This document shows positions 3,996 through 35,277 of a stretch of 64,000 nt of DNA, one piece after another; the first letter of the stretch is position 1; each line of letters begins with the position of its first letter. The translations under genes were made by a program, and so were the position numbers. The stretch lies in the NCBI GenBank assembly GCA_903843285.1, contig CAIMPC010000007.1, positions 92,730-156,729 of the forward strand, read 5' to 3'. Below the pieces are notes generated by a model. The model was not told where the DNA came from. It ran no database searches and was given only the letters and a program-made list of their open reading frames with translations. Origin of the DNA: Candidatus Omnitrophota bacterium (lineage in GTDB: Bacteria; Omnitrophota; Gorgyraeia; 2-01-FULL-45-10).

Positions 3996-4837
3996 GCGTG
4001 ACAAATACGGTGCTTAATGCAAAAGATATCAGAAAAAAAGCAGACCGGATAAGGGCGGAAGTTATAGATGTCGCGGTACGGAACGGTGCCGGGCACATCG
4101 CGCCTTCTCTGTCCTGCATCGATATACTCGTAGCGCTCTATTATGGCTCGATGTCCTACAGGCCGGGATATCCCGCTTGGGACGGCAGGGACAGGCTTAT
4201 ATTCTCTAAGGCACATGGCTGCTACACACTGTACGCGATATTAGCTGATATAGGTAATATGCCGAAAGAGGAGTGGAAAAAGTTTTATACCTGCGACAGC
4301 ACGCTCTCCGGCTGCGCAGAAAACAGGCCCGAGTATGGTATCGAGGCAAGCTGTGGTTCTCTGGGTCATGGATTACCCATGGCTGTCGGCAATGCGTTAG
4401 CCGCAAAATTACAGAAGAAGAAATATCACACTTTCTGTATTATCGGGGACGGAGAAATGCAGGAAGGCACCACATGGGAAGCTATTCAGTTTGCGGTTAA
4501 GCATGAGTTGAATAATTTAACCATAATAATCGACGAGAACCGTATTCAAGCCATGGATTTTATTACTAATATCATGGATATCGGGGTAAATGATAAGATA
4601 CGTAAATTAAAAGGTTTTGGCCTGTTGCCCATAGTATGCCCGGGGCATGATGTTGTCAAATTGGCAGGTGCCATCAGGCTCGCCCGCAGGCCATCCGGCA
4701 GAGTTCCCAAGGTACTTATAGCACAAACGACAAAAGGTTTCGGCCTGAAATGCATGGAGGATGTGCCTAAGTTCCATTTTCGTATTCCTACAGAAGAAGA
4801 GATATGTTTGGGAAGAAGCTATGGCTGCGGATATTAA
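3992..4837 (+). CDS. transketolase, N-terminal (TPP-binding) subunit
   Basis: GSLGHGLPMAVGNALAAKL and GDGEMQEGTTWEA motifs of the thiamine-diphosphate-binding half of split transketolases. GTG start. Confidence 0.75.
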   Translation: MSVTNTVLNAKDIRKKADRIRAEVIDVAVRNGAGHIAPSLSCIDILVALYYGSMSYRPGYPAWDGRDRLIFSKAHGCYTLYAILADIGNMPKEEWKKFYTCDSTLSGCAENRPEYGIEASCGSLGHGLPMAVGNALAAKLQKKKYHTFCIIGDGEMQEGTTWEAIQFAVKHELNNLTIIIDENRIQAMDFITNIMDIGVNDKIRKLKGFGLLPIVCPGHDVVKLAGAIRLARRPSGRVPKVLIAQTTKGFGLKCMEDVPKFHFRIPTEEEICLGRSYGCGY

Positions 4838-5312
4838 TTTTAGAAAAGATATAGGCGATAGCCTTCTGCCTTATTTTAAAAAAGATAAACGGCTCCATCT
4901 TTTAGTATGCGATATGGGGTTCGGGGTTGTCGATCGGATCAATAAACAGTTCCCGGGAAGAGTCATTAACTGCGGTATCATGGAACAGGGAACGGTCGGG
5001 ATCGCTGCGGGTATGAGCATGAGCGGTTTAGTTCCCATAGTCTATTCGATAGTGAATTTTCTTGTTTACAGGGCGCTGGAGCAGATGCGGAACGATGTCG
5101 TACTGCAGAAATTAAATGTTAAATTTATCTCTACAGGTGCGGATGATTACTTTAAGTTTCTCGGGCCCTCGCATTGTTGCGCCCAGGATGACATTAAGCT
5201 AATGAAGCTGATCAAGATGAAGGTTTACGATCCTTATACCGATAAGAAGGGTTTTCATAAACTGGTCAAGGAATGGATAGCTGATGATAAAGCAGGTTAC
5301 TTGAGGATCTGA
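4821..5312 (+). CDS. transketolase C-terminal subunit, pyrimidine-binding (Pyr) domain only (about 163 aa)
   Basis: CGIMEQGTVGIAAGMSMSGLVPIV Pyr-domain motif. Start set at ATG 4821 (MAADINF), overlapping the upstream gene by 17 nt. The C-terminal transketolase_C domain appears absent. Confidence 0.65.
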   Translation: MAADINFRKDIGDSLLPYFKKDKRLHLLVCDMGFGVVDRINKQFPGRVINCGIMEQGTVGIAAGMSMSGLVPIVYSIVNFLVYRALEQMRNDVVLQKLNVKFISTGADDYFKFLGPSHCCAQDDIKLMKLIKMKVYDPYTDKKGFHKLVKEWIADDKAGYLRI

Positions 5313-12300: not shown

Positions 12301-13836
12301 ATGGCTGAACATAAGAGCGTTATCCTGATATATCCGAAAACCGGTATGGATTTCGGATCGACTGTCGCCCCGCCCCATTCGCTATTGACTATTGCTGCTC
12401 CATTGCACAGCGAAGGCTATCGAGTAAAGATAATAGATCAAAGAGTGGACAGAGACTGGAATAAACATCTGGCCGATGAGCTGATGCTTGACCCTATATG
12501 TATCGGGATATCCTCTATGACTGGTATGCATATACATTTTGCTGTTGAAGCGGCCAGGATCGTCAGGTCATTAACCAAGAATCGCGCGGTGCCTATTGTG
12601 TGGGGAGGCCCGCATCCGTCCATATTGCCGGAGCAGACACTTAATAGCGATTACGTGGATATAGTATGTGTCGGTGAAGGGGATATCACATTTAATGAAC
12701 TTGTAAAGGTCCTCGAGAAAGGTGGGGACCTGTCGGGAGTAAAGGGAATTGCGTTTAAGGATGGCAATAAAGCAGTAGTGAATTCTCCTGCTCCATTGAT
12801 CGACGTGGAAAAGCTACTGCCCGTACCATGGGAACTGATCGACGTGGAAAAGTATATTCATCCGGATATGTATCTTAAAGAAAGCTCCCGAACTTTAGAT
12901 ATAGGGCAGACGAGCAGGGGTTGCCCTTTCAGCTGCGGTTTCTGCTGCAGCGCCAGCCTGAGAATGAGGAAATGGCGCGCGATGTCAGTAGAGCGAAGCC
13001 TGCAGGCGATCGTGGATCCGATCAGGAGATTTAAGCTTAACGGTATCTGGATAAGGGATGACGAGTTCTATATTGACAGAGAAAGAGCTTCACGGATATG
13101 CGAGGGGATAATAAGAGAGAAGCTAAGCATAAGCTGGTATACATCAGGAACGAGAGTCGATGTATTTAATAAGGCATCCGATGAGCAGACGTCCCTGCTA
13201 AAGAAGAGCGGCGCGTACGTTCTGAAATATGGGGCCGAATCCGGCTCAGACAGGATCCTTAAGATGATAGAGAAGGGCATAAAAGTCGAAGATACTATCA
13301 GGGCCAACCTTAAGGCAAAGAAACATGGCATAACTCCGGCTTTTTCTTTGATGATAGGCTTTCCCACTCAGACGTTCGAAGAGATAGATGCTACCATTGA
13401 GCTTATGTTCAGGCTTAAGAGAGATAACCCCAGCGCGCAATTTGAGGCCATAGCGACCTATACCGCATTGCCGGGAACCCCGATGTACGATCTGGCTCTT
13501 AAGAACGGTTTGAAACCGCCTGATAGTTTGGAGGGATGGATTAACTGGAATTTTATCGATTATGACCTGGAGGGAGAGAGGATCCCGTGGTTCGATCTTG
13601 ATGCAAGAAGAAAGATAGGGAATATATGCTATTTAAGCATCCTGGCTAACGGGTTTCGCAATGCCATTGACAGCATAGAGAATGTGCTATTAAGGATGGT
13701 GGCGAAAGCATTTTATACGCCCATTAGTCTGTTTTATCGTCTCAGGCTTGAGCGAAAATGGTATAATTTTTCATGGGATCTCATGATCATAAGATTCATA
13801 AGGGCGAAACTTTTCTACAAGGGTTATTCCAAATAA
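12301..13836 (+). CDS. cobalamin-binding (class B) radical SAM protein
   Basis: B12-domain motif WGGPHPS. SRGCPFSCGFC radical SAM motif. Paralog of 47596 and 54824. Confidence 0.8.
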   Translation: MAEHKSVILIYPKTGMDFGSTVAPPHSLLTIAAPLHSEGYRVKIIDQRVDRDWNKHLADELMLDPICIGISSMTGMHIHFAVEAARIVRSLTKNRAVPIVWGGPHPSILPEQTLNSDYVDIVCVGEGDITFNELVKVLEKGGDLSGVKGIAFKDGNKAVVNSPAPLIDVEKLLPVPWELIDVEKYIHPDMYLKESSRTLDIGQTSRGCPFSCGFCCSASLRMRKWRAMSVERSLQAIVDPIRRFKLNGIWIRDDEFYIDRERASRICEGIIREKLSISWYTSGTRVDVFNKASDEQTSLLKKSGAYVLKYGAESGSDRILKMIEKGIKVEDTIRANLKAKKHGITPAFSLMIGFPTQTFEEIDATIELMFRLKRDNPSAQFEAIATYTALPGTPMYDLALKNGLKPPDSLEGWINWNFIDYDLEGERIPWFDLDARRKIGNICYLSILANGFRNAIDSIENVLLRMVAKAFYTPISLFYRLRLERKWYNFSWDLMIIRFIRAKLFYKGYSK

Positions 13837-13837
13837 G

Positions 13838-14809
13838 ATGAATGCCATATCTAAAGACGTATCGATCGAGCTCTACAATATTATGATGCGGATCAGGCTG
13901 GTGGAGCTTAAGATCGAGGAACTATATGCGCAAGATGAGATGAGGACGCCGATTCATCTGTGTGTAGGACAGGAGGCGATAGCAGCCGGAGTATGCGCAA
14001 ATCTAAATAAGGCAGACTATGTATTCAGTAATCATAGAGGACATGGCCACTACATAGCAAAGGGCGGCGATCTGAGAGCTATGGTCGCGGAGCTCTACTG
14101 TAAGGAGACGGGGTGTTCAAGGGGCAGGGGCGGATCGATGCACCTAATCGATACGTCGGTAGGCTTCATGGGATGCTCTTCGATAGTAGGCGGCAGCATA
14201 CCGATAGCGACAGGCGCGGCCCTGAACTCACTTCTGTGCAAGGATGGCAGGGTGTCAGTAGTCTTCTTCGGTGATGCGGCCTCCGAAGAAGGCGTTCTGT
14301 TCGAAAGTATGAACTTCGCAGCCTTAAAAAATTTACCCATCGTCTATATCTGCGAAAATAATTTTTACTCTGTTTGCTCTCACCAAACCGCCAGACAGGC
14401 AAACTGCGACATATCAATGAGGCCAAAAGCTTTCGATATATCTTCCTGTAAAGTCGACGGCTCGGAAGTCATGGAAGTATATGCAGAGTCAAAAAAGGCC
14501 ATCGATAAAGCGCGATCCGGCAAGGGTCCGTCTTTTTTAGAATGCCGCGCATATCGCTGGAGGGGCCACGTGGGTCCCGGGGATCCGCAGAAGGATTCCT
14601 ATAGAGAGCAGAAAGAATGGGTAGAATGGATGAAGAAAGACCCTCTTAAGAAGTTTGAGGACTCTTTAACGAAAAGCGATATTTTGGATGACGCGTGCAT
14701 AAAAAATATCAGATGTAAGATCGATGAGGATATTTCAGAAGCTTTTGAATTTGCCAAAAATTCCCCATTGCCGGACAGAAGAGAGCTTGAAAAATATCTA
14801 TATGGTTAA
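13838..14809 (+). CDS. thiamine-diphosphate-dependent dehydrogenase E1 alpha subunit-like protein (pyruvate/acetoin dehydrogenase E1 alpha family)
   Basis: NHRGHGHYIAKGGDL...GCSRGRGGSMHL motifs of E1 alpha. Confidence 0.75.
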   Translation: MNAISKDVSIELYNIMMRIRLVELKIEELYAQDEMRTPIHLCVGQEAIAAGVCANLNKADYVFSNHRGHGHYIAKGGDLRAMVAELYCKETGCSRGRGGSMHLIDTSVGFMGCSSIVGGSIPIATGAALNSLLCKDGRVSVVFFGDAASEEGVLFESMNFAALKNLPIVYICENNFYSVCSHQTARQANCDISMRPKAFDISSCKVDGSEVMEVYAESKKAIDKARSGKGPSFLECRAYRWRGHVGPGDPQKDSYREQKEWVEWMKKDPLKKFEDSLTKSDILDDACIKNIRCKIDEDISEAFEFAKNSPLPDRRELEKYLYG

Positions 14810-14814
14810 ATAAT

Positions 14815-15858
14815 ATGCCCTGGACAAAATTTATCATTGAAAAACAAGAACCGGGCTACGATGAGCACGCAGGTGGATCCGATCGGAAATTGACCGTACC
14901 TGAGGCCATAAGAGAGACGCTGGACCGGGCGCTTGCGATAGATAAGCAAGTCTTCGTAATGGGTCAGGGAGTTGACGATCCTTCGGGCATGTTCGGGATG
15001 ACGCTGGGCCTTCAGGAGAAATATGGTAAGGAGAGAGTATTTGATACGCCTTTGTCAGAGAATGCGCTGACGGGTATAGGCGTGGGGGCGGCTCTTACCG
15101 GGTCCAAACCCGTGTATTTTCATAACAGGCCTGACTTTCTGCTTTTAGCGATGGATCAGATCGTCAACCATGCAGCCAAATATAGTTACATGTTCGGAGG
15201 TAGAGTAAGGATCCCGTTAGTAATAGTCGCGATAATAGGGAGAGGGTGGGGTTCCGCCGCGCAGCATTCGCAGTCTCTGCACGGGTTATTTATGCACATA
15301 CCTGGCTTGCGCCTCGTCATGCCCAGCACGGCATACGACGCGAAAGGGTTATTGGCCGCCAGCATTGCTGATGGGAACCCGGTCATCTTTATTGAGCATC
15401 GCTGGCTGTTTAAACACAGGAGTTATGTTCCTGAGGAGCTGTATACGATCCCACTGGGAAAGGGCCTGGTGCGCCGTAAAGGAAAAGATGTGACGATAGT
15501 AGGTATATCCTATATGGTGATAGAGGCATTGAGGGCGGCGGAGGAGCTTAAAGGTGAGGGGTTTGATGCGGAGATTATCGATCCCAGGACGCTGAGGCCG
15601 CTTGATGAAGAGATTATCCTTGAATCAGTAAAGAAGACCGGGCATCTCGTGATAGCCGATACGGACTGGAAGACCGGCGGTGCTGCATCCGAGATCGCCT
15701 CGATGGTAGCGCAAAAGGGTTTTAAATATCTTAAGGCACCGGTAAAGATAGTAGCCTGGCCGGATGTGCCGGTTCCGGGTAGCTATGTCCTGGAAGAGGC
15801 TTTTTACCCGGGTAAAGACGATATTATAAGATTAGTAAAGGATCTGGTAAATATATGA
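14815..15858 (+). CDS. E1 beta subunit-like protein (transketolase-like Pyr and C-terminal domains)
   Basis: FVMGQGVDDPSGMFGMTLGL...ENALTGIGVGAALTG motifs. C-terminal transketolase_C-like segment. Confidence 0.75.
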   Translation: MPWTKFIIEKQEPGYDEHAGGSDRKLTVPEAIRETLDRALAIDKQVFVMGQGVDDPSGMFGMTLGLQEKYGKERVFDTPLSENALTGIGVGAALTGSKPVYFHNRPDFLLLAMDQIVNHAAKYSYMFGGRVRIPLVIVAIIGRGWGSAAQHSQSLHGLFMHIPGLRLVMPSTAYDAKGLLAASIADGNPVIFIEHRWLFKHRSYVPEELYTIPLGKGLVRRKGKDVTIVGISYMVIEALRAAEELKGEGFDAEIIDPRTLRPLDEEIILESVKKTGHLVIADTDWKTGGAASEIASMVAQKGFKYLKAPVKIVAWPDVPVPGSYVLEEAFYPGKDDIIRLVKDLVNI

Positions 15859-16787
15859 AGATATTAGTTACTGGGGCGGCAGGATACATAGGGTCTGTTT
15901 TGGTTCCCGAATTGTTGAAAGAGGGATTTCAGGTCATCGCGTTAGATAATTTCATGTATAATCAGGCGTCATTACTGGATTGCTGTAATAATAAGAATCT
16001 GACCATAATCCGCGCAGATGTGCGGGACAAGGGAGTGGTTTCTAGATGTTTGAAAGATGCCGATGTCATCATCCCGTTAGCATGCTTTACAGGAGCTCCT
16101 CTTTGCCAGATCAATCCATTCGAAGCTAAGAGTGTGATTTTGGACGCGATAAAGATGATGCTGGATCTGCGCAGTAAAGAACAGATCATCATATATCCCA
16201 CCACAAATAGCGGTTATGGGATAGGCCAGAAGGGAATATACTGTACCGAAAAGACTCCTTTAAAACCCGTATCTCTGTATGGTAAGCTGAAGGTTGAGGC
16301 TGAGAAGGCTCTGCTGGATGTGGGCAACTGCGTTACTTTAAGGCTCGCTACGGCATTTGGGATCAGCCCGAGGATGAGGCTGGACCTCCTGGTAAATGAC
16401 TTCACCTATCGCGCCGTAAACGATCGGTTCTTAGTGCTCTTCGAAGCTCATGCAAAGAGAAATTATATACACGTCCGCGATGTAGCGAAGGCCTTTATTC
16501 ACTGCCTGAATAAGTTCGATCGGATGAAGGATGAGCCGTATAATGTCGGTTTAAGCGATGCCAATCTCAGTAAATGGGAGCTGTGCGAAAAGATCAGGGA
16601 ACAGGTCCCTGACTTCTATTTCATAGAGGCGAATATCGGGGAGGATCCGGATAAGAGGGACTATATCGTCAGCAACCAAAAGATAGAGAAGACCGGATTC
16701 AGTACGAGCATGTCAATGCATGAAGGTATTCTGGAACTGATAAAGGGATATAAGATCATCAGAAGGAACCAATATTCCAATGTCTAA
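15855..16787 (+). CDS. NAD-dependent epimerase/dehydratase (extended SDR)
   Basis: ILVTGAAGYIGS Rossmann motif and YGKLK (YxxxK) catalytic motif. Confidence 0.75.
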   Translation: MKILVTGAAGYIGSVLVPELLKEGFQVIALDNFMYNQASLLDCCNNKNLTIIRADVRDKGVVSRCLKDADVIIPLACFTGAPLCQINPFEAKSVILDAIKMMLDLRSKEQIIIYPTTNSGYGIGQKGIYCTEKTPLKPVSLYGKLKVEAEKALLDVGNCVTLRLATAFGISPRMRLDLLVNDFTYRAVNDRFLVLFEAHAKRNYIHVRDVAKAFIHCLNKFDRMKDEPYNVGLSDANLSKWELCEKIREQVPDFYFIEANIGEDPDKRDYIVSNQKIEKTGFSTSMSMHEGILELIKGYKIIRRNQYSNV

Positions 16788-17532
16788 TATAAATATGGCA
16801 GATAAAGTAACCCTGATAATCCCTACGCTGAATGAGATAGATGGCGTGCGCGTTATCATGCCGAGGATAAAACCCGAATGGTACGATCAACTTATAGCCC
16901 TTGACGGCGGTTCGACCGACGGGACTGTCGAGTATCTGAGGGAGCGTGGTTATGAAGTCGCTTTTCAAAAAGCTGTAGGGTTAAGGAAAGCGTTCATTGA
17001 AAATTATAAGAACGTCAAAGGCGATATAATGATCACCTTCAGCCCCGACGGTAACTCTGTCCCGGAATTAATACCCGCGCTAATTGCCAAGATCAGAGAG
17101 GGCTATGACATGGTCATAGTCTCCAGATATCTGGATGGTGCCAAAAGTTACGATGATACTTTTATTAGCGGATTGGCAAACAAATTCTTCAAAAAAACCA
17201 TCGGCTTACTTTTCGGGTATAAGTACACGGACGCGCTAGTCATATATAGGGCGTACAGGAGAGAGATAGTGGATGAGCTGGGCATCCTTAAGCCGCGATC
17301 CGACTTCTATGAAAAGCACATAGGAAGATATGTAAGCTGGGAGCCTCAATTATCTATCCGCTGCGCAAAGAGAAGATTAAAGATCGCCGAGATCCCGGGA
17401 GACGAGCCTAAAAGAATAGAAGACGAGAGCAAGGTGGGACTGCGGATGCTGCCATCCAGCAGGATAAGACATTTCAGGGTCGGCTTTGCGTGTATAGCCC
17501 TGATCGTAGATGAGTTCTTCAGATTTCGTTAA
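16780..17532 (+). CDS. glycosyltransferase family 2
   Basis: VTLIIPTLNE...ALDGGSTDGT GT2 signature. Confidence 0.7.
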   Translation: MSNINMADKVTLIIPTLNEIDGVRVIMPRIKPEWYDQLIALDGGSTDGTVEYLRERGYEVAFQKAVGLRKAFIENYKNVKGDIMITFSPDGNSVPELIPALIAKIREGYDMVIVSRYLDGAKSYDDTFISGLANKFFKKTIGLLFGYKYTDALVIYRAYRREIVDELGILKPRSDFYEKHIGRYVSWEPQLSIRCAKRRLKIAEIPGDEPKRIEDESKVGLRMLPSSRIRHFRVGFACIALIVDEFFRFR

Positions 17533-17568
17533 ACAGATCAGGCGAAAGGATGGTTAAGGACTAGACAT

Positions 17569-18576
17569 ATGGTTATAAGCAGAACGCCTTTTCGTATATC
17601 TTTCTTTGGAGGGGGGACGGATTATCCTGTGTGGTATAAAGATAATCGCGGTGCGGTATTGACGGTCTCAATAAACAAGTATTGTTATCTGACCTGCCGT
17701 TATCTTCCGCCGTTTTTTAAGCATAAGTCCCGGATCATCTGGTCTGAAATAGAATACGTGAAAGGCATATCCGAGATTCGTCATCCATCGGCCAGGGAAT
17801 GTTTGCGATTTATGGACATCAAGAAAGGTGTGGAGATACATCATGACGGTGATCTGCCTGCCAGGACTGGAATGGGCTCGAGTTCTTCTTTTACGGTCGG
17901 ATTACTTCATGCGCTTTATGCGTTAAAAGGTATCATGCCCACTAAGAGGCAATTGGCGCTTGATGCCATTCACCTAGAACAGGAAGTGATGAAGGAGAAC
18001 GTCGGCTCCCAGGACCAGGCACAAGCCGCCTTTGGCGGATTTAATCTGATAGAATTTGGCGGAAAGGACCATATTATGGTCAGGCCGATGACCATAAATC
18101 CTGATAGATTGGCGCATTTTCACTCTCACCTGATGCTTTTTTATACGGGTCTTTCCAGGACCGCTTCGGAAATAGCGGCTGAGCAGATAAGATGCACCCC
18201 CTACAAGAAGAAAGAGCTGCATATGATGCATGGATTCGTAAATGACGCCATAGAGATCCTAAATGGTAATTCCCGACTGTCAGAGTTCGGGAAACTGTTG
18301 CATGAAAATTGGCTGATCAAGCGAAGCTTGTCCCATAAGATCTCGACAACCGCTATTGACCGAATGTATTCAACCGCTATAAGGGCGGGCGCCTCAGGGG
18401 GCAAACTTCTTGGTGCCGGCGGCGGAGGATTTATGTTAATATTTGCTAAGCCCGAGAATCAGCATGAGATAAGAGAGAAACTAAAAAAACTTTTATACGT
18501 GCCCTTTCGGTTTGAAGATCTGGGTAGCCAGATAATCTTTTACAGTCCCGGAGACTCTTTAACAAGTCCTGTTTAG
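17569..18576 (+). CDS. GHMP sugar kinase (D-glycero-D-manno-heptose 7-phosphate kinase HddA-like)
   Basis: RISFFGGGTDYP N-terminus, PARTGMGSSSSF GHMP ATP-binding motif, LLGAGGGGFM C-terminal motif. Confidence 0.7.
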   Translation: MVISRTPFRISFFGGGTDYPVWYKDNRGAVLTVSINKYCYLTCRYLPPFFKHKSRIIWSEIEYVKGISEIRHPSARECLRFMDIKKGVEIHHDGDLPARTGMGSSSSFTVGLLHALYALKGIMPTKRQLALDAIHLEQEVMKENVGSQDQAQAAFGGFNLIEFGGKDHIMVRPMTINPDRLAHFHSHLMLFYTGLSRTASEIAAEQIRCTPYKKKELHMMHGFVNDAIEILNGNSRLSEFGKLLHENWLIKRSLSHKISTTAIDRMYSTAIRAGASGGKLLGAGGGGFMLIFAKPENQHEIREKLKKLLYVPFRFEDLGSQIIFYSPGDSLTSPV

Positions 18577-18599
18577 AACTAATTAAGGGCGGGTAGGAT

Positions 18600-19610
18600 A
18601 TGACCGACAAGAGAGATGTTTCACGCGTACTGATAACCGGCATCTACGGTTCAGGCGCCAGTTACCTGGCGGAATACATAGTTCAGAACCATCCGAAGGT
18701 AGAAGTCCATGGGATAGCACGTTGGCATAGCACTGCGCAGATTAAGAATATAGAAGCGATCCGTGATAAGCTGTCGATCCATGAAGCAGATCTTATGGAT
18801 CTCGGTTCCGTCCTAAACGTAATGGAGAGCGTGAAGCCGGACGTTATCTTTCATTTGGCGGCTTACGCAAACGTGAGGGCCTCATTCATCACGCCATATA
18901 GCGTCATGAGCAATAACATCCTTGGGACCGTTAACCTGTTTGATGCTGTCAGGCTGGCAAAACTGGATCCTATGATCCAGCTTTGCAGTACTTCTGAAGT
19001 GTACGGGCAGGTCGATCCAAAAGACGTCCCGATCAAAGAAGGTGCACCGATACGGCCGGTCAATCCGTATTCAGTATCAAAGGCAACCCAGGACCTATTG
19101 GGGTTCAGTTACTTTAAAAGTTACGGTATGCGTATTATCCGCACCCGCATGTTCACGTATATAAATCCCCGCAGAACAGATCTTTTCGCCACATCATTCG
19201 CAAAGCAGATCGCCTGGATCGAGAAAGGCATGCAGAAGGAGCTATTGCACGGCAACCTGGACTCTGTGCGCACGATAGTCGATCCGCGGGACGGAATGCG
19301 AGCATATTGGGACGCGATAATGTTTTGCAAATTCGGTGAAACATATAATATAGGCGGCACGGTCTCTACGACGGTCGGAGAGGTCCTGAAGCGCTTAATA
19401 TCAATGAGTGATCAGGCTATACCGACACGGTTGGATCCCGCCCTTCTGCGTCCGGCGGATGTAACTCTGCAGATACCATGTGTAGATAAATTTGTAAGCC
19501 AGACTGGATGGAAGCCGAGGTACACGATGGAAGAGAGCCTCGAGTATCTTCTTTCTTATTGGCGGAAGGAAGCCGAAAAGGCCGTTAAGATGAGAGAGTT
19601 CGACAGCTAG
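18600..19610 (+). CDS. GDP-sugar 4,6-dehydratase (Gmd / GDP-manno-heptose dehydratase DmhA-like)
   Basis: ITGIYGSGASYLAEY...VHGIARW, STSEVYG, PYSVSKA and NPRRTD align with the ITGITGQDGSYLAE...VHGIKRR, STSELYG, PYAVAKL and NHESPRRG blocks of Gmd. Confidence 0.75.
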   Translation: MTDKRDVSRVLITGIYGSGASYLAEYIVQNHPKVEVHGIARWHSTAQIKNIEAIRDKLSIHEADLMDLGSVLNVMESVKPDVIFHLAAYANVRASFITPYSVMSNNILGTVNLFDAVRLAKLDPMIQLCSTSEVYGQVDPKDVPIKEGAPIRPVNPYSVSKATQDLLGFSYFKSYGMRIIRTRMFTYINPRRTDLFATSFAKQIAWIEKGMQKELLHGNLDSVRTIVDPRDGMRAYWDAIMFCKFGETYNIGGTVSTTVGEVLKRLISMSDQAIPTRLDPALLRPADVTLQIPCVDKFVSQTGWKPRYTMEESLEYLLSYWRKEAEKAVKMREFDS

Positions 19611-20324
19611 ATGAGAAGCGAAAATGATCCCGGCAGGATCGATGCCGTAATCCTCTGCGGAGGTAGAGGCGAACGTCTTAAGCGGATAGTTAAAGATAGG
19701 CCGAAGCCGATGGCCGATATTAACGGACGGCCATTCCTTGACATGGTTATAGATCATTTGTCGGACTACGGCTTTAAGCGGGTGGTATTGTGCCTGGGCT
19801 ACAAGGCCGACGTGATCCGTAAGTATTATTCAGGAAGGCACAGCAAAATAGAGATACTTTTTTCTGCGGAAGCATTTCCTCTGGGCACGGCAGGGGCGAT
19901 TAAGAATGCGGAGGCACTGATAGGCAGCGATCCGTTTCTCGTCATGAATGGTGATTCATACTGCTCCATAAATCTGCAGCGTTTCATAGATTTCCATATA
20001 AAAAAGAAGAATGTTCTTTCGATGGCTTTAACCAGATCCGTTGAAAATGAAGATTGCGGCTTTGTTCGTCTGGATCGTTCGCGAAAGATCACCAGTTTTA
20101 ACGAAAAGAATCGCACCGATAAAGATAGATACGTGAATACCGGAATATACTTATTTTCTAAGAAAGCCCTTAAGTTAATACCGCCAGGAAAGAAAATATC
20201 CCTGGAATATGAGGTCATACCAAAAATATTGAACAAAAAAATCTACGGATTCGTAACGGATGAAAGATTGACGGACATAGGCACGCCTGGCAGGTACAGG
20301 AAAGCAAAGATATGTTTTAAATGA
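19611..20324 (+). CDS. sugar-1-phosphate nucleotidyltransferase (heptose-1-phosphate guanylyltransferase HddC-like)
   Basis: AVILCGGRGERLK...KPMADINGRPFL nucleotidyltransferase N-terminal signature. Confidence 0.7.
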   Translation: MRSENDPGRIDAVILCGGRGERLKRIVKDRPKPMADINGRPFLDMVIDHLSDYGFKRVVLCLGYKADVIRKYYSGRHSKIEILFSAEAFPLGTAGAIKNAEALIGSDPFLVMNGDSYCSINLQRFIDFHIKKKNVLSMALTRSVENEDCGFVRLDRSRKITSFNEKNRTDKDRYVNTGIYLFSKKALKLIPPGKKISLEYEVIPKILNKKIYGFVTDERLTDIGTPGRYRKAKICFK

Positions 20325-20364
20325 TTATTTTTGATCGGTTATCGGTAAGGAAATAACAGGAGAG

Positions 20365-21603
20365 ATGAGCGTGGCTGAAAAGAAGAACGGAAAGCGACCG
20401 GTCACAGTGCCTTTTGGGACTTTGTCGATTAATGGTAAGTCCAGGGCTCTGGTGAATAAGGTTCTCGACTCCAATAGGGTCTCTTGCGGAAAATATGTCA
20501 GAGAGTTCGAGAAGAGGTTTGCCGAGCTGGTCGGTGCTAAAGAAGCAGTTGCGCTAAGCTCAGGCACGGACGCAGACGCGCTTGCCCTGGCGGTGCTATA
20601 CGACTTCGGCGCGCATCGAGGGGACGAGGTCATAGTTCCGGCCCTGTCGTTCGTAGCAACGGGCAACGCGGTGCTGCAAGCCGGTTTTACTTCTGTCTTT
20701 GTCGACATTGAGAGAAATACACTAAATATAGACCCTTTAAAGATCGAAGCGGCGATCACTAATAAGACCAGGGCCCTGATGCCGGTGCACTTGATCGGTA
20801 AACCCGCAGCCATGGACGCGATAAATAGGATAGCTAAAAGGCATAAGCTCATAGTTATCGAAGACGCTGCAGAGGCGCATGGGGCGGAATACAAAGGACG
20901 TAATGCCGGCACGCTCGGTGACATGGCGGCCTTCAGCCTTTATGTGGCGCACATCATAACGTCGATCGAAGGCGGCATAGTCACAACCAACCGCAAAGAT
21001 TATGCGGAGATATTAAGGTCGCTTCGGTCGCATGGCCGGGCATGTAAATGCGATAAGTGCGTGCTCAATACCGCTTCAGCATATTGTGCCAAGAGATTTA
21101 AATACGGATCCAGTAATGATATAAGGTTTGTTTTTGAGCGCATAGGATATTCAAGTAAAATGAACGAATTGGAGGCCGCAATAGGCCTTGGCAACCTGAG
21201 CGACTACCACAGCATATTAGCTCGTAGGAGAAAGAACCTGGGTTATCTTACCGATAAGTTTAAAAGATTCGCTCCTTACTTGCTGACGATCGAGGCTGGT
21301 GCCAAAGAAAAAATAGGGCCGCACGCGTTTCCGGTGATAATCCAGGAGTGTGCTCCGTTCACCAGGGAAGATATGACCGCTTATCTGGAAAAAAATGGCG
21401 TTGAGACGAGAACATTATTTTCGTCTATGCCTACCCAGTGCCCCGGCTACAAATTTTTGGGTTACGAATTGGGTGATTTTCCGAATGCCGAGTATATAGG
21501 CAATAACGGATTTCATATAGGTGTCCATCAGGATCTGAAACAGAGGGAGCTGGATTACTTCCTCAAGTCTGTAGCGGATTTTTTGTCAGATAAAATAAGG
21601 TGA
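20365..21603 (+). CDS. DegT/DnrJ/EryC1 family PLP/PMP enzyme of the 3-dehydratase type (ColD / E1-like)
   Basis: The active-site block SLYVAHIITSIEGG has His where aminotransferases carry the Schiff-base Lys, as in ColD and CDP-4-keto-6-deoxyglucose 3-dehydrase E1. It follows a Gmd-like gene. There is an extra 4-Cys insertion CKCDKC...C. Confidence 0.7.
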   Translation: MSVAEKKNGKRPVTVPFGTLSINGKSRALVNKVLDSNRVSCGKYVREFEKRFAELVGAKEAVALSSGTDADALALAVLYDFGAHRGDEVIVPALSFVATGNAVLQAGFTSVFVDIERNTLNIDPLKIEAAITNKTRALMPVHLIGKPAAMDAINRIAKRHKLIVIEDAAEAHGAEYKGRNAGTLGDMAAFSLYVAHIITSIEGGIVTTNRKDYAEILRSLRSHGRACKCDKCVLNTASAYCAKRFKYGSSNDIRFVFERIGYSSKMNELEAAIGLGNLSDYHSILARRRKNLGYLTDKFKRFAPYLLTIEAGAKEKIGPHAFPVIIQECAPFTREDMTAYLEKNGVETRTLFSSMPTQCPGYKFLGYELGDFPNAEYIGNNGFHIGVHQDLKQRELDYFLKSVADFLSDKIR

Positions 21604-21614
21604 CGTAAGATATT

Positions 21615-23885
21615 ATGGATAGAATCTCTGACAGAGCTGAATCGGTCGGGATCCCGAACCGGATCAAGACAATTTATGTATGCACAGCCGTTCTATTGAT
21701 AAGCGTATTTATAGCCCTGCTTTATCGTCCTATACAAGCCGCGTTTCACGAGCACGATCTCCTATTTATGATGCCTGTCATGTCTTCCATCCCGGCGGGC
21801 CAGTCTTTTTTTGAAAGTATAAAAGTATTTCTTTATAATCCGTACACGATGGTTTTCGGTGACCCATGGATGAATACTTATTTGTCAGTGGTGTTAGCCG
21901 TTTTTGGATTTCAAACAAAGTACTACATTTTTACGTCTATAGCGCTCCACTTTTTATGCGCTCTATTTTTGTATCTTGTCCTACGAATGATAGATTTTGA
22001 TTTCAGAGTTGCCTTTTTTTCGAGCCTCGTGTATTTAACGTTATTTATTCATTTCGGTTATTATTTCTTTCCCATGGCAACCCATCATGTCTTCGTGATC
22101 TTCTTTAGTTTACTGATCATGTACCTTTATTTTAGTACGATGAAAAAAATCGACGAAGATCGTAATTGGAGGTATTTGTTTTGGCTCACGATCTCCGCTA
22201 ACTTCCTGGCGTCTTTTTGCCAGATAACGATCCTTATTTTACCTATCGGCATTCTGTCGCACATTCTAATATCTTCAAATGACGTGGCGGATAGATTAAA
22301 AAAATACGATATCTGGATTCCTTTATTTATAACTTATTTAGGTTACCCTCTCTTGAGAACCGCTTACACGACGTTTCCGCATCTTAAGGTATTTCTTCAT
22401 AGACAAGGTGATGCCCCCGGAGGGCATTCATTGTATTTATTGCTTTTTCTGTCAGGTATCGGTTTGCTTTCTGTTCTTAGATATATTTTAAAGTTGTCCT
22501 GTAAGTATCATTTTGGCAGGATATTGAAGATTCTTTGTGTGTCGGCGATCGTGTCTTATATCGTCGCTTTTATTATCGTATTGGGCAGAAACGATCTGAT
22601 AACGCCGAGCAAGGTAAAATTATTTGATTGGCTGTCCCCGCTTAATATCTTTCGACCCATGGCGGTGATGCTCGAAGATTTTATTTTTCCTATTAAAGCG
22701 GCGTTTTCTACGGATTCAACCGTAATATTCAATGTCATGTCTAGGCATAGTGGCGCCATCGCCTTATCGTCAGCCGTATTTATGTGCGTTATTTTCATGA
22801 AGAAGTTTTTCTTCAGGCACAAAGGCCTTATAGTGATAATGATGTTTTATATCATCGCGCTTCGCTATATGCGAATTGAGACCTCTGTTATCCGGTCGCG
22901 ATATTTTATTTATGTGACGCCTCTGTTCTGTATCGTTTTCTGCTCTTCATTTATGTATATGTACGACCTTATCATTAAAAAGACCAGATTAAAAACGATC
23001 TTTCAGGAGTTCATTTTGGCTCTTATATTTATCGGGCTTTGCATACCGAATATCTTTGCTATAAAGACAGAATTATATAGAAGTAAATTCGTAAATAATT
23101 TTCTTTCGTATGATGATATCAGAGCAGCCTATATTATAAACAACGATATTAATACTTCGGGCTCCATAAGGCTCATTAGTCCGGAAAATATATTTATTGA
23201 GGGTGTTCAGCCCATGCCGTTCATTTTTAACGAGCTTTACACCCTTGAGCTGGAGGACCATTTGAAATATGATCCATTCAGATATGTCTTAGCCCAGACG
23301 CTTGACAATAGATCAGTGCTTCATGTAAGTGTCAATATGGGTAAGCCGGGCGATATGAAAGGAAAATTGTTATTTAATATTAGTGGGCCCAGGATATACG
23401 ATTCAAAAGGCTTAAATATTGACAGATTTAGCTCGTGTTTTGACGATGCTATGCGAGAGCTGAGGCTTGGCGATTACAAAAAGGCCTATGTGCTGTTCAG
23501 GAAAGCCATTGGGATGAGGCCATTTTTGCTGAATTATATATTATCCAAGAACGACTTGAAAGAGCTGAAATGTATTACTGGCGAACGTGACCTAAAAAGC
23601 TGGGTTAAAGTTATAGTGAATTATTATGAGACCACCGGTGGTAATGAAAAGAAAGCGATGAGTAACTCAGCTCTTATTAACGATGAGATAGACGAGTATA
23701 TTAGATGCATTGTTTACGCGGCATATTTAAGCTATATTGCCGGTGAGCGGGAAGAAGGCAATAGGCTCTTGGAGCAGATAAGATACATTGAAAATGACCA
23801 GAATAAGGTACTGGCATTATTGAATAATGAGTCATCAATCCAGTCTGAGCATATCTTACAAGCGTTTTCCTCGAATAGTCCTTAA
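21615..23885 (+). CDS. large polytopic membrane protein with a C-terminal soluble TPR-like region (possible GT-C-fold transferase or polymerase)
   Basis: Many hydrophobic segments in the first roughly 500 aa. C-terminal hydrophilic region with TPR-like repeats. Confidence 0.4.
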   Translation: MDRISDRAESVGIPNRIKTIYVCTAVLLISVFIALLYRPIQAAFHEHDLLFMMPVMSSIPAGQSFFESIKVFLYNPYTMVFGDPWMNTYLSVVLAVFGFQTKYYIFTSIALHFLCALFLYLVLRMIDFDFRVAFFSSLVYLTLFIHFGYYFFPMATHHVFVIFFSLLIMYLYFSTMKKIDEDRNWRYLFWLTISANFLASFCQITILILPIGILSHILISSNDVADRLKKYDIWIPLFITYLGYPLLRTAYTTFPHLKVFLHRQGDAPGGHSLYLLLFLSGIGLLSVLRYILKLSCKYHFGRILKILCVSAIVSYIVAFIIVLGRNDLITPSKVKLFDWLSPLNIFRPMAVMLEDFIFPIKAAFSTDSTVIFNVMSRHSGAIALSSAVFMCVIFMKKFFFRHKGLIVIMMFYIIALRYMRIETSVIRSRYFIYVTPLFCIVFCSSFMYMYDLIIKKTRLKTIFQEFILALIFIGLCIPNIFAIKTELYRSKFVNNFLSYDDIRAAYIINNDINTSGSIRLISPENIFIEGVQPMPFIFNELYTLELEDHLKYDPFRYVLAQTLDNRSVLHVSVNMGKPGDMKGKLLFNISGPRIYDSKGLNIDRFSSCFDDAMRELRLGDYKKAYVLFRKAIGMRPFLLNYILSKNDLKELKCITGERDLKSWVKVIVNYYETTGGNEKKAMSNSALINDEIDEYIRCIVYAAYLSYIAGEREEGNRLLEQIRYIENDQNKVLALLNNESSIQSEHILQAFSSNSP

Positions 23886-23993: not shown

Positions 23994-24488
23994 ATGCATA
24001 ATAAGCTTGAAATGGCACAAGATAAGTTTATGGAGGGCATAGGTAAGCTGGCGGAAAGTGTTGGCGTTAGCCGCTTTATCGCCCAGTTATACGCAGTTCT
24101 ATATCTAAGTGATAGGCCTTTATCCCTGGATGATCTAGTTGAACGTCTAAAAGCAAGCAAAGGCAATATAAGCCTCAATATAAGGGAGCTTGAAAAGTGG
24201 GGAGGCGTTAAGAACATTTGGGTTAAAGGCTCACGCAAGGACTATTATGAAGCGGACCCCGATATTAAGAAATTTGTTCTTAAGAAGATCAGGTCCGGGG
24301 TCCAGAAAAGGATAGGGCAGGTTACGGATATGATGGATGAGTTTAAAGAATTGATAAACTCCGGTAATGATGAAATGGGTGACGAAGATAAGATGATAGT
24401 AAAAACGTATCATGAAAAACTGAAGAATATTGAAAATATGAAGAGCCTGGCCGACAAAGCGCTTATGCTGGCCGATAAATTATTATAA
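23994..24488 (+). CDS. winged-helix transcriptional regulator, GbsR/COG1510 (MarR-like) family
   Basis: RFIAQLYAVLYLSDRPLSLDDLVERLKASKGNISLNIRELEKWGGV...WVKGSRKDYYEA matches the characteristic HTH and RKDYYEA block of COG1510 regulators. Confidence 0.55.
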   Translation: MHNKLEMAQDKFMEGIGKLAESVGVSRFIAQLYAVLYLSDRPLSLDDLVERLKASKGNISLNIRELEKWGGVKNIWVKGSRKDYYEADPDIKKFVLKKIRSGVQKRIGQVTDMMDEFKELINSGNDEMGDEDKMIVKTYHEKLKNIENMKSLADKALMLADKLL

Positions 24489-33703: not shown

Positions 33704-34618
33704 ATGTGTAAGAATATTCGCATAATACCCAGGCTTGATATAAAAGGGGAAAATCTCGTTAAGGGTATTCATCTGGAAGGGCTGCGCGTCCTTGGCAAGC
33801 CAGAGGACTTTGCTTATGAGTACTGCGCCGGAGGAGCGGATGAATTACTCTACATCGATATCGTGGCAAGCCTTTACGGCAGGAATAATCTTATCGATAT
33901 AGTTCGCCGCACGGCCGCGAATATATTTATCCCACTAACGGTAGGTGGAGGGATAAGATCTGTAGACGATATAAGGATGATGTTGCGCGCCGGCGCGGAT
34001 AAGGTCGCGATAAATACTGCAGTCGTAAAAAGACCGGAGTTTATTAGCGAGGCAGCTAACGCATTCGGTTCCCAGTGTATCGTCCTTTCGATTGAAGCAA
34101 AGCGTACCGGAGACGGAACTTATGAAGCGTATACCGATAACGGCAGAGAGCGAACGGGCCTCGATATCTTTAAATGGGCGCTTAGGGGAGCGGAACTCGG
34201 CGCAGGTGAGATCCTTATCACTTCTATCGATAATGAAGGCACCGGTAAGGGGTTTGATATCGATCTAATAAGAAAGATGTCGGCTATTGTGGATATCCCG
34301 GTGATCTCCTGCGGTGGCGCGGGTAAAATGGGTGATTTTGAAGACGCGGTTGTGAGCGGAAGTGCTGATGCGATATCGGCCGCTTCGGTATTCCATTACC
34401 ATCTAGTCAAGACACAGTCGGTGCCGCAAAAATTTAATTTAAAGAGCAATCTGGATCATCTTGCGAAGAGCCTTTCGAGTGATGGTGCCAGTTTTGGCGC
34501 GATAGAGACATTCAGCGTCAAGGGCCTGAAGTCATATTTGGTCGGGAAAGGGCTGCCGATCCGTCCGGTGATGAGCGCTCATATACTGATAGAGCCTAAT
34601 GCCGAGAATATTTTATGA
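33704..34618 (+). CDS. imidazole glycerol phosphate synthase cyclase subunit HisF-like (WbuZ-like)
   Basis: RIIPRLDIKGENLVKG...VGGGIRS HisF signature. Sits in a sugar cluster next to a HisH-like gene. Confidence 0.8.
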   Translation: MCKNIRIIPRLDIKGENLVKGIHLEGLRVLGKPEDFAYEYCAGGADELLYIDIVASLYGRNNLIDIVRRTAANIFIPLTVGGGIRSVDDIRMMLRAGADKVAINTAVVKRPEFISEAANAFGSQCIVLSIEAKRTGDGTYEAYTDNGRERTGLDIFKWALRGAELGAGEILITSIDNEGTGKGFDIDLIRKMSAIVDIPVISCGGAGKMGDFEDAVVSGSADAISAASVFHYHLVKTQSVPQKFNLKSNLDHLAKSLSSDGASFGAIETFSVKGLKSYLVGKGLPIRPVMSAHILIEPNAENIL

Positions 34619-35277
34619 CACATCGCATCGTGATCGTAGATTATGGAGCCGGAAACCTTTATAGCATAGAGCGGGCATTGGATTTCATAGGCGTTCAAGC
34701 CGAAGTGGTAAGCACTCCGGAAAAGATAGCTGGTGCCGAACGCATAATTTTGCCGGGAGTCGGCGCTTTCAAGAACGGTATGCGAGGATTGTCTGAACGT
34801 GGCCTGGTAGGTCCGCTGCAGGAATATGTCAGGTCGGGCCGACCATTGCTCGGCATCTGTCTGGGCATGCAGCTACTGATGAGTGAAAGTGAGGAATTTG
34901 GCAGATACGATGGACTCAACATGGTCAAGGGCAAGGTAGTCCGGTTAGACCCAGCGCTTCCAGGCAAGGAGCGATTCAAGGTTCCGCATGTAGGATGGAG
35001 CAGGGTAATACGGAGGGAAAGCAGTTGTGCGGAGATGCCGGATGGGTGGACGGAGGGCGTTCTTAAGAGCCTCCCCAATGGTTTCTTTGCATATTTTGCC
35101 CACTCATTTGTGGTTGTGCCCGAAGATGGCTCGGCCTGTATAGCTCAGACAAAGTATGGTGGAGCGACATTTTGCTCTTGCCTGCAGCAGAATAATTTAT
35201 ACGGCTGCCAGTTCCATCCGGAGCGTAGCGGCATAGAAGGTTTGGAGATCTATAGGGACTTTGTCCGGAGAAATTAG
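34615..35277 (+). CDS. glutamine amidotransferase HisH-like (WbuY-like)
   Basis: IVIVDYGAGNLYSIERAL...LPGVGAF class I GATase signature. Confidence 0.8.
   Translation: MTHRIVIVDYGAGNLYSIERALDFIGVQAEVVSTPEKIAGAERIILPGVGAFKNGMRGLSERGLVGPLQEYVRSGRPLLGICLGMQLLMSESEEFGRYDGLNMVKGKVVRLDPALPGKERFKVPHVGWSRVIRRESSCAEMPDGWTEGVLKSLPNGFFAYFAHSFVVVPEDGSACIAQTKYGGATFCSCLQQNNLYGCQFHPERSGIEGLEIYRDFVRRN

Follow-up and report, generated by a model that had tools for sequence, protein, structure and literature searches.

A ten-gene Omnitrophota operon with a putative pathway to a modified GDP-heptose, and related gene modules in other phyla

Gene content of the locus

We analyzed a 64,000-nucleotide stretch of DNA from a Candidatus Omnitrophota bacterium (hereafter the window), in which a preliminary description had assigned positions 17569-21603 to a branch of guanosine diphosphate (GDP)-heptose metabolism comprising a GHMP-family kinase, a GDP-sugar 4,6-dehydratase, a sugar-1-phosphate guanylyltransferase and a DegT-family 3-dehydratase. 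Comparison with Pfam, with the NCBIfam equivalog models and their cut-offs, and with PDB sequences (bits are quoted for each match) left these four genes, their order and their folds as described: the region holds four open reading frames (ORFs) of the + strand at exactly the coordinates given before, each with a Pfam match to its family. Together with six adjoining genes they span 12301-23885, where neighbouring genes overlap or stand 0-40 nucleotides apart, a gap of 108 nucleotides appearing only after 23885. This spacing argues for one operon of ten genes, listed below with the four genes in question at its centre. We see a slightly better than even chance that this tightly packed operon makes a modified heptose and passes it to a lipid carrier.

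12301..13836, +, cobalamin (B12)-binding radical S-adenosylmethionine (SAM) enzyme; Pfam B12-binding and Radical_SAM
13838..14809, +, thiamine-diphosphate subunit resembling pyruvate dehydrogenase (PDH) E1 alpha; Pfam E1_dh 231 bits, NCBIfam PDH_E1_alph_y 330 bits
14815..15858, +, PDH E1 beta-like subunit; Transket_pyr and Transketolase_C, NCBIfam PDH E1 beta 327 bits
15855..16787, +, Cj1427-type short-chain dehydrogenase/reductase (SDR); 406 bits against PDB 6vo6
16780..17532, +, small family 2 glycosyltransferase (GT2) of the polyprenyl-phosphate sugar synthase type (AglJ/ArnC/DPM-like); Glycos_transf_2 53 bits
17569-18576, +, GHMP kinase, 335 residues; Pfam GHMP_kinases_N and GHMP_kinases_C
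18600-19610, +, extended SDR, 336 residues; Pfam GDP_Man_Dehyd/Epimerase 207 bits
19611-20324, +, nucleotidyltransferase, 237 residues; Pfam NTP_transferase 112 bits
20365-21603, +, DegT-family protein, 412 residues (410 in public gene calls, which start two codons later); Pfam DegT_DnrJ_EryC1 328 bits
21615..23885, +, multi-pass membrane protein; predicted GT-C fold, C-terminal domain helical and TPR-like; AlphaFold2 and Foldseek

A DegT-family protein with an active-site histidine and a cysteine loop

A histidine in place of the Schiff-base lysine is the hallmark of the 3-dehydrases ColD and E1. In the alignment this site reads FSLYVAHIITSIEGG in the window DegT protein (hereafter His-DegT), compared to FSFFGNKIITTGEGG in perosamine synthetase and SFYPAHHITMGEGG in E1, and the histidine is invariant in all 187 of the 187 family members, in full agreement with the substitution noted earlier. 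The enzyme had also been called ColD-like, a label that did not survive the comparison with solved structures. The alignments with E1 (198 bits) and ColD (189 bits, ∼30% identity), which are about equally distant, both cover the whole of His-DegT; a match to perosamine synthetase (208 bits) falls into two pieces because of an insertion of 27 residues with four cysteines (GRACKCDKCVLNTASAYCAKRF). This insertion is unmatched in perosamine synthetase and aligned to the cysteine-rich loop of E1 (GRDCYCAPGCDNTCKKRF), a loop that has no counterpart in ColD. It carries equivalents of E1 C251, C253 and C261 (the E1 loop also has C257) and an extra cysteine, followed by an (A/K)KRF motif. The cluster-binding cysteines of E1 we take to be C193, C251, C253 and C261, the loop itself being visible in the 3bcx sequence; the position of C193 is not a cysteine in His-DegT (IEDAAEAHGA).

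By these features His-DegT is of the E1/RfbH-like rather than the ColD kind, and it probably holds an iron-sulfur cluster. We propose that it is a C3-dehydrase dependent on pyridoxamine 5'-phosphate (PMP) and acting on GDP-4-keto-heptose. The likeness to E1 itself (RfbH/DdhC/AscC, the 3-dehydrase of cytidine diphosphate (CDP)-6-deoxy-L-threo-D-glycero-4-hexulose in Yersinia and Salmonella) comprises the full-length alignment, the histidine at the lysine site and the cysteine-rich loop at the same place. On the other hand, the window enzyme scores below the RfbH cut-off, lacks the C193 equivalent, has a different fourth cysteine, stands in a GDP-heptose rather than a CDP-hexose context and has a loop-less sub-clade among its relatives; the gene for E3 (AscD) is missing as well. 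No ferredoxin-NADP-reductase-like ORF of at least 150 residues was found in the window as an AscD-type partner, and the operon has no gap large enough for one.

The family is large, with at least 120 protein clusters 69-79% identical to His-DegT, all of them metagenomic. The four-cysteine loop is present in 152 of the 187 members; in the other 35, an Omnitrophota clade of proteins of ∼370 residues, it is cleanly deleted with the active-site histidine kept (alignment of P0001-P0120 and loci L008-L080). The putative cluster thus seems to be optional within the family.

Two SDRs and the nature of the substrate

The SDR encoded at 15855-16787 matches PDB 6vo6/6vo8 without gaps (406 bits, 177 of 308 residues, or 57%, identical). 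The identification of 6vo6 as Cj1427 was indirect: translated, the published primer Cj1427cF918 gives RAFKMMKV, and the 6vo6 sequence has this stretch at its C-terminus. Cj1427 is the GDP-heptose C4-dehydrogenase of Campylobacter jejuni, with a tightly bound NADH that is recycled by alpha-ketoglutarate (PMC10680097). As a Cj1427 ortholog the window SDR would yield a 4-keto sugar with the 6-hydroxyl kept, and an identity of 57% argues for a GDP-heptose enzyme within the operon.

The second SDR (18600-19610) had been described as a 4,6-dehydratase of the DmhA/Gmd type, a role that only part of the evidence favours. Among solved structures it is closer to C. jejuni DmhA (186 bits) than to Gmd (124 bits), but closest to the reductase Rmd (212 bits). 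Its CSTSEVYG (STSE) and PYSVSK (YxxxK) motifs do not discriminate, as Rmd has the same ones. The phylogeny suggested earlier, Gmd against DmhA/DdahA, likewise gave a divided answer (the Rmd and DmhA sequences for this comparison were rebuilt from printed alignments). In a simple neighbour-joining tree, the deeper nodes of which have no support values, the 18600-type SDR and its counterparts in two related loci (L088 and L089) form a clade of their own (bootstrap 100), separate from the DmhA group and sister to it, DmhA and the DmhA-like SDRs of other loci being together and Rmd outside. These two loci are among the closest relatives of the window locus and share its arrangement: L088 has an E1 beta subunit, a Cj1427-like SDR, the kinase, an 18600-type SDR, the transferase, a radical SAM enzyme and His-DegT, and L089 is similar; in two same-clade loci (L005 and L090) an Fcl-like SDR fills the slot. 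The 18600 protein can be placed, by sequence, in the Rmd/DmhA branch of the Gmd family. It would be either a GDP-heptose 4,6-dehydratase parallel to the dehydrogenase or a ketoreductase replacing the Fcl-like enzyme; C. jejuni serotypes HS:3, HS:4 and HS:23/36 carry a dehydrogenase and a dehydratase together (PMC10680097).

Kinase, nucleotidyltransferase and the supply of heptose

The nearest solved structures of the kinase are WcbL (125 bits), the Bacteroides thetaiotaomicron protein 3k85 (119 bits) and C. jejuni HddA (118 bits), with fucokinase at 62 bits. Equivalents of the catalytic R13 and D163 of WcbL, residues named in a study whose structures are complexes with mannose and adenylyl imidodiphosphate (AMP-PNP) only (PMC4691232), are kept in the alignment as R9 and the aspartate of SQDQ. 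The protein shares 62-69% identity with its counterparts in L010 and L033, two kinases encoded together with gmhA and gmhB. We propose an HddA/WcbL-like anomeric sugar kinase of the GHMP family, with the role of a heptose-7-phosphate 1-kinase. For the transferase the best solved match is HddC of Yersinia pseudotuberculosis (133 bits, ManC-type proteins reaching at most 94), and it is 53% identical to its L073 ortholog, behind which gmhA and gmhB stand; an HddC-like sugar-1-phosphate nucleotidyltransferase acting as heptose-1-phosphate guanylyltransferase would fit these relationships.

As stated in the preliminary description, the window lacks gmhA and gmhB; neither gene occurs in the 10 kb on each side either, where only more glycan genes were found. 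A gmhA gene nearby, which that description had suggested looking for, was met only in orthologous modules of other genomes. A locus of Dehalococcoidia (L033) has gmhA (222 bits, cut-off 209) and gmhB, and its adjoining SDR and kinase are 73% and 69% identical to those of the window. In L073 gmhA and gmhB come straight after the transferase. In L010 a 435-residue fusion (14810-16117) of a nucleotidyltransferase (residues 3-236) with a GmhB heptose-1,7-bisphosphate phosphatase (residues 251-434) is encoded directly behind a split transketolase and gmhA. In 18 Omnitrophota loci gmhB lies 4-10 kb downstream, beside genes of family 9 glycosyltransferases (GT9). As the gmhB gene of C. jejuni is found outside the capsule cluster (PMC10680097), the lack of gmhA and gmhB near the window weakens the heptose reading and does not refute it.

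The proposed heptose substrate has thus gained support from the relatives of the kinase, transferase and SDR, from the adjoining Cj1427 ortholog, from gmhA and gmhB in orthologous modules and from the absence of Gmd, ManB and ManC (see below). The HAD_2-type protein at 51635-52312, formerly offered as a possible GmhB, is not GmhB-like: it gave no tblastn match to the GmhB queries from the modules and no NCBIfam match at 1e-8.

Conservation of the module across genomes

A scan of species-representative genomes for His-DegT gave 80 loci (identity of 50% or higher in 73), distributed over Omnitrophota, Brocadia and other Planctomycetota, Elusimicrobiota, Nitrospirota, Desulfobacterota, Syntrophorhabdus and Dehalococcoidia. 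The ORFs of these loci were given family labels by BLAST-based assignment with fixed thresholds, the window proteins serving as reference. Linkage of the kinase and the nucleotidyltransferase to His-DegT was seen in 60-67 of 87 loci; where the upstream flank measures 7 kb or more (44 loci), it was seen in 42-44. Such an arrangement is not a product of chance. Counted over these 44 loci, to which all module counts refer, the genes accompanying His-DegT are as follows.

GHMP kinase: 44/44 loci
Two-subunit thiamine (diphosphate) enzyme: 43/44 loci
Nucleotidyltransferase: 42/44 loci
B12 radical SAM enzyme: 38/44 loci
Cj1427-like SDR: 30/44 loci
Fcl/GDP-fucose-synthase-like SDR: 29/44 loci
DmhA-like SDR: 12/44 loci

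The core of kinase, nucleotidyltransferase and His-DegT with the two-subunit thiamine and B12 radical SAM enzymes recurs in at least 44 genomes of Omnitrophota, Nitrospirota, Brocadia, Elusimicrobiota, Desulfobacterota and Dehalococcoidia. The Cj1427-like and the DmhA-like SDRs (the latter 45-53% identical to C. jejuni DmhA) are mutually exclusive across the 44 loci, a pattern that fits two alternative routes to the GDP-4-keto-heptose needed by a C3-dehydrase. The Fcl-like SDR of the modules reaches 406 bits at a cut-off of 500.

The neighbourhood of the module varies. In four loci of Nitrospirota, Brocadia and Desulfobacterota (L016, L017, L019 and L027) it adjoins ORFs that, judged by eye, resemble flagellin or the hook-associated (FlgL-type) proteins, and in Omnitrophota loci it stands beside GT9, GT4, gmhB and manC genes; one and the same module may thus supply sugar to different glycoconjugates. 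In some Brocadia and Nitrospirota (L011, L016, L029) a hydrolase of ∼200 residues with a Nudix motif is encoded between His-DegT and the transferase, recalling the GDP-mannose mannosyl hydrolase of GDP-sugar clusters.

The thiamine and radical SAM enzymes

The PDH-E1 alpha/beta-like pair (13838-15858) has neither an E2 nor an E3 in the window, and its beta subunit is 85% identical to that of L005. Such pairs are known from deoxysugar biosynthesis: Plm8/Plm9 and AviB1/AviB2 are PDH-E1 alpha/beta-like and put a pyruvate-derived two-carbon chain at C-4 of nucleoside diphosphate (NDP)-4-keto deoxysugars, and YerE makes the same attachment following E1/E3 in yersiniose synthesis (PMC4802897). By analogy, we propose the window pair as the donor of a two-carbon branch. 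Across the modules (loci L008-L080) the thiamine slot is occupied by three mutually replacing forms, namely a full PDH-E1 alpha/beta, a truncated E1 alpha/beta (∼204 and 190 residues) and a split transketolase. The window itself holds, besides the full E1 alpha/beta of the operon, a split transketolase at 3992-5312, 9 kb upstream, between GT9 and GT2 genes.

Orthologs of the radical SAM enzyme (12301-13836) that are 60-68% identical to it occur in the modules of L005, as the first gene, and of L022, beside His-DegT. Analogy suggests a C-methyltransferase as the probable role of this B12 radical SAM enzyme, with the sugar as its substrate. A limited literature search revealed no paper that describes a module of heptose, thiamine and radical SAM enzymes.

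The GT2 and GT-C proteins

The GT2 (16780-17532) matches the NCBIfam models of AglJ (75 bits), ArnC (50 bits) and dolichyl-phosphate hexose transferase (49 bits), all below their cut-offs, and its orthologs adjoin the module in 9 of the 44 loci. The membrane protein that ends the operon (21615-23885, 756 residues) has no sequence match in Pfam, NCBIfam or PDB, and only 27 homologs were found (P0121-P0147). Its AlphaFold2 model (predicted local distance difference test score, pLDDT, 80; predicted template modelling score, pTM, 0.83) has its top Foldseek matches among AglB/STT3/PglB, ArnT, DPY19 and Pmt4, with probabilities of 0.94-1.0 and modest template modelling (TM) scores of 0.28-0.41. In L005 and L089 the gene holds the same position, after His-DegT or its adjoining Fcl-like SDR. 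On the strength of the model, the protein appears to represent an unrecognised GT-C family, for which we propose the transfer of a sugar linked to polyprenyl phosphate.

The pairing of a small polyprenyl-phosphate GT2 with a GT-C transferase, in one operon with nucleotide-sugar genes, recalls the two-step periplasmic glycosylation of the ArnC/ArnT, GtrB/Gtr and Ppm1/PMT types. In contrast to those systems, the GT-C protein of the window is devoid of Pfam and PDB sequence matches, has just the 27 homologs and carries the TPR-like C-terminal domain; a flippase was not identified.

A proposed pathway and its alternatives

We propose the following route. The results under it are the gene identities, the histidine substitution, the cysteine loop, the orthology to Cj1427, the synteny counts and the GT-C fold; both the substrates and the order of steps are inferred. 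The kinase, a GmhB encoded elsewhere (which would strip the 7-phosphate) and the transferase would convert heptose-7-phosphate to GDP-heptose, and the Cj1427-type dehydrogenase would oxidize it to GDP-4-keto-heptose. The SDR at 18600 would provide either a parallel 6-deoxy-4-keto version, as in the C. jejuni serotypes with both enzymes, or a later ketoreductase. His-DegT would then take off the 3-hydroxyl by PMP chemistry, the electrons for its cluster probably coming from a general ferredoxin or flavodoxin, since no E3 reductase is encoded. Next, the E1 alpha/beta enzyme would probably attach two pyruvate-derived carbons at the C-4 ketone, forming a branch like those of yersiniose, eurekanate and paulomycose; a C-methyl group would probably come from the B12 radical SAM enzyme. 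Finally, the small GT2 would load the sugar onto polyprenyl phosphate, and the GT-C protein would move it to an acceptor outside the cytoplasm. The core of this route (formation of GDP-heptose, of the 4-keto sugar and of the 3-deoxy sugar) we regard as quite probable, whereas its extension (two-carbon branch, C-methyl group, polyprenyl loading and onward transfer) is tentative and falls somewhat short of an even chance. A likely product would be a 3-deoxy or 3,6-dideoxy heptose with a two-carbon branch at C-4.

Several observations weigh against the proposed route. None of the four central proteins attains the cut-off of an NCBIfam equivalog model (144 bits against 600 for the kinase and HddA, NF049969; 157 against 300 for the transferase and HddC, NF049965; 273.5 against 423 for His-DegT and RfbH; 124 against 415 for the 18600 SDR and Gmd). 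The genes gmhA and gmhB are missing from the window and its flanks, as are an E3-type reductase and a clear Fcl-type C4-reductase from the window, and the role of the SDR at 18600 is ambiguous, given its separate clade and a top score, among solved structures, against the reductase Rmd. The 35 His-DegT proteins devoid of the cysteine loop imply that the cluster may not be essential to the chemistry. The roles assigned to the thiamine and radical SAM enzymes are drawn from context and analogy only, and the split transketolase of other genomes, which sometimes adjoins gmhA (L010), could point to a supply of sedoheptulose-7-phosphate. We consider a mere supply role of this kind less likely, because the split transketolase is replaced one-for-one by E1 alpha/beta types that are incapable of it.

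The best surviving alternative, albeit an unlikely one, is that the four genes, with gmhA and gmhB encoded elsewhere, make plain GDP-3,6-dideoxy-heptose, while the flanking thiamine, radical SAM and glycosyltransferase genes serve other pathways of the glycan island. GDP-3,6-dideoxy-heptoses of C. jejuni HS:5 and HS:11 were characterised in 2023, their pathway comprising hddC, gmhA, hddA, a 4,6-dehydratase, a ColD-type C3-dehydratase (62-67% identical to ColD), a C5-epimerase and a C4-reductase (PMC10440746); such sugars are therefore no longer as unusual as the preliminary description had assumed. The same enzyme classes and the same chemical order are proven there, and DmhA outscores Gmd as a match to the 18600 SDR. 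Yet the thiamine (43/44) and B12 radical SAM (38/44) enzymes travel with the core across phyla, a DmhA-like SDR is present in only 12 of the 44 modules, and neither a C5-epimerase nor an Fcl-type C4-reductase that could complete the sugar is encoded in the window. The genes also overlap or abut as a single operon, and the dehydrase is only ∼30% identical to ColD, far below the C. jejuni enzymes. Because the four genes belong to one operon with the thiamine and radical SAM enzymes, the pathway probably does not stop at plain 3,6-dideoxy-heptose.

A second, rather improbable alternative places the thiamine enzyme at the start: the kinase and transferase would activate a higher-carbon or otherwise unusual sugar phosphate, built by the thiamine enzyme before nucleotide activation, and the later enzymes would modify that sugar. 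A comparison is offered by the LmbR/N/P/K/O route to GDP-octose in lincomycin biosynthesis. The divergence of the kinase and transferase from HddA and HddC would be accounted for, as would the nearly constant presence of a thiamine enzyme and the L010 arrangement, in which the split transketolase comes directly before gmhA and the GmhB-transferase fusion. An enzyme of the E1 alpha/beta type, however, would give 1-deoxy-ketoses, which are not isomerised by GmhA nor phosphorylated at C1; the interchange of three thiamine-enzyme forms argues for one common step, and the 57% identity to Cj1427 argues for a GDP-heptose substrate.

It is still less probable that His-DegT catalyzes a reaction other than C3-dehydration with PMP or pyridoxal 5'-phosphate (PLP), such as transamination with no internal aldimine or a C-C/C-O lyase reaction tied to the thiamine enzyme. 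Its identity to any characterised dehydrase is ∼30%, the best, albeit partial, PDB match is to an aminotransferase (the 208 bits of perosamine synthetase), and the cysteine loop is dispensable in 35 members; against this stand the invariance of the histidine hallmark in all 187, the E1-type loop at the same site as in E1 and the company of a 4-keto-forming SDR (Cj1427-like in 30 and DmhA-like in 12 of the 44 loci).

An action of the enzyme set on GDP-mannose to give GDP-colitose or another 3,6-dideoxy-hexose, which the preliminary description had kept as the simpler explanation should a mannose-type Gmd and a ManC/ManB set be present, is very improbable: although the Pfam name of the SDR family is GDP_Man_Dehyd, the transferase scores 160 bits against a mycobacterial ManC model, and ColD and E1 act on hexoses, no ManB, ManC or Gmd was found in the window or in the 10 kb on each side, an anomeric kinase is unnecessary for mannose, the SDR is nearer to DmhA than to Gmd (186 against 124 bits), and the adjoining Cj1427 ortholog together with gmhA and gmhB in orthologous modules is strong evidence for heptose.

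Relation to known systems and significance

The heptose route proposed here has its closest parallel in C. jejuni, where GDP-3-deoxy-heptoses were produced in vitro with Cj1427 and a ColD-type dehydratase (PMC10680097). Both systems have the same enzyme classes, a Cj1427 ortholog is present in the window, and 3-deoxygenation would again follow 4-keto formation. Further likenesses are the DmhA orthologs, Fcl/Cj1428-like reductases and RmlC-like epimerase encoded in related modules, a gmhB placed outside the cluster, and a possible coexistence of dehydrogenase and dehydratase, as in some serotypes. The window differs in its C3-dehydrase, which has an E1-like four-cysteine loop and is not of the ColD type, in the scores of the kinase and transferase, far below those of HddA and HddC, and in the lack of gmhA at the locus. 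It adds the E1 alpha/beta pair, the B12 radical SAM enzyme, the polyprenyl-phosphate GT2 and the GT-C protein, and the hosts belong to uncultured environmental phyla.

A second parallel is to yersiniose A (E1/E3, then YerE, then YerF), eurekanate (AviB1/AviB2) and paulomycose (Plm8/Plm9), in that a 3-deoxygenated NDP-4-keto sugar would be paired with a thiamine enzyme able to add a pyruvate-derived two-carbon unit at C-4. The AviB and Plm pairs, which we liken to the window pair by architecture and not by sequence, are two-subunit E1 alpha/beta enzymes without E2 or E3, encoded with genes for NDP-4-keto deoxysugars. YerE, unlike the E1 alpha/beta of the window, is a flavoprotein of the acetolactate-synthase type. 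The substrates of these systems are CDP- or deoxythymidine diphosphate (dTDP)-linked hexoses or pentoses, as opposed to GDP-heptose, and in other genomes the thiamine slot of the module holds a split transketolase or a truncated E1 alpha/beta.

The tailoring of GDP-heptose has so far been studied almost only in pathogens of Campylobacter, Yersinia and Burkholderia, and the same logic is encountered here with different enzymes, in a module conserved among many uncultured environmental phyla. The differences from C. jejuni are the type of dehydrase, the constant company of thiamine and radical SAM enzymes, the proposed delivery by a lipid carrier and the hosts. In its widest form, our reading would be of a widespread, unstudied pathway of uncultured bacteria, including anammox Planctomycetota, that makes a 3-deoxy or 3,6-dideoxy heptose, branched at C-4 by two carbons that the thiamine enzyme adds and C-methylated by the radical SAM enzyme. 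Such a sugar would belong to a monosaccharide class not yet described, and the pathway would include an E1-like iron-sulfur dehydrase working on GDP sugars without E3, as well as a new GT-C family. We put this combination forward as a tentative and on balance doubtful claim, with about one chance in three of being correct in all its parts. If the inferred chemistry is true, bacterial glycans would gain a new branched higher sugar, a heptose relative of yersiniose, erwiniose and caryophyllose; a large DegT subfamily (the at least 120 clusters mentioned above), labelled 'aminotransferase' in databases, would gain a function; and iron-sulfur 3-dehydrases would not be confined to CDP and dTDP sugars. 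The module is also a source of candidates for the enzymatic synthesis of rare deoxy-heptoses.

The surrounding glycan island

A 164-residue MarR/winged-helix-like protein is encoded directly 3' of the module, both in the window (23994-24488) and in its relative L088 (8354-8848), and may be a local regulator. The whole window (1-64000; L091, L092) is a single-strand glycan island that reaches at least 10 kb past each end. It holds ∼11 B12-binding radical SAM enzymes, ∼8 SAM methyltransferases, three CMP (cytidine monophosphate)-sugar synthetase-like genes, two NeuB synthases (24489 and 38833) and a true NeuC (27112, 417 bits against a cut-off of 236), together with an ABC exporter and an MBOAT protein; WecA-like, Wzy_C and GT9 genes lie downstream. 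At 33704-35277 we found a WbuZ/HisF-like (275 bits) and HisH-like (187 bits) pair, a type linked to the acetamidino modification of nonulosonic acids, followed by a 394-residue ORF without a family match. A 587-residue fusion (49119-50882) joins an HMGL-like aldolase, nearest to 4-hydroxy-2-oxovalerate aldolase (137 bits), to a weak MptE-like/DUF115 (Maf-type) domain.

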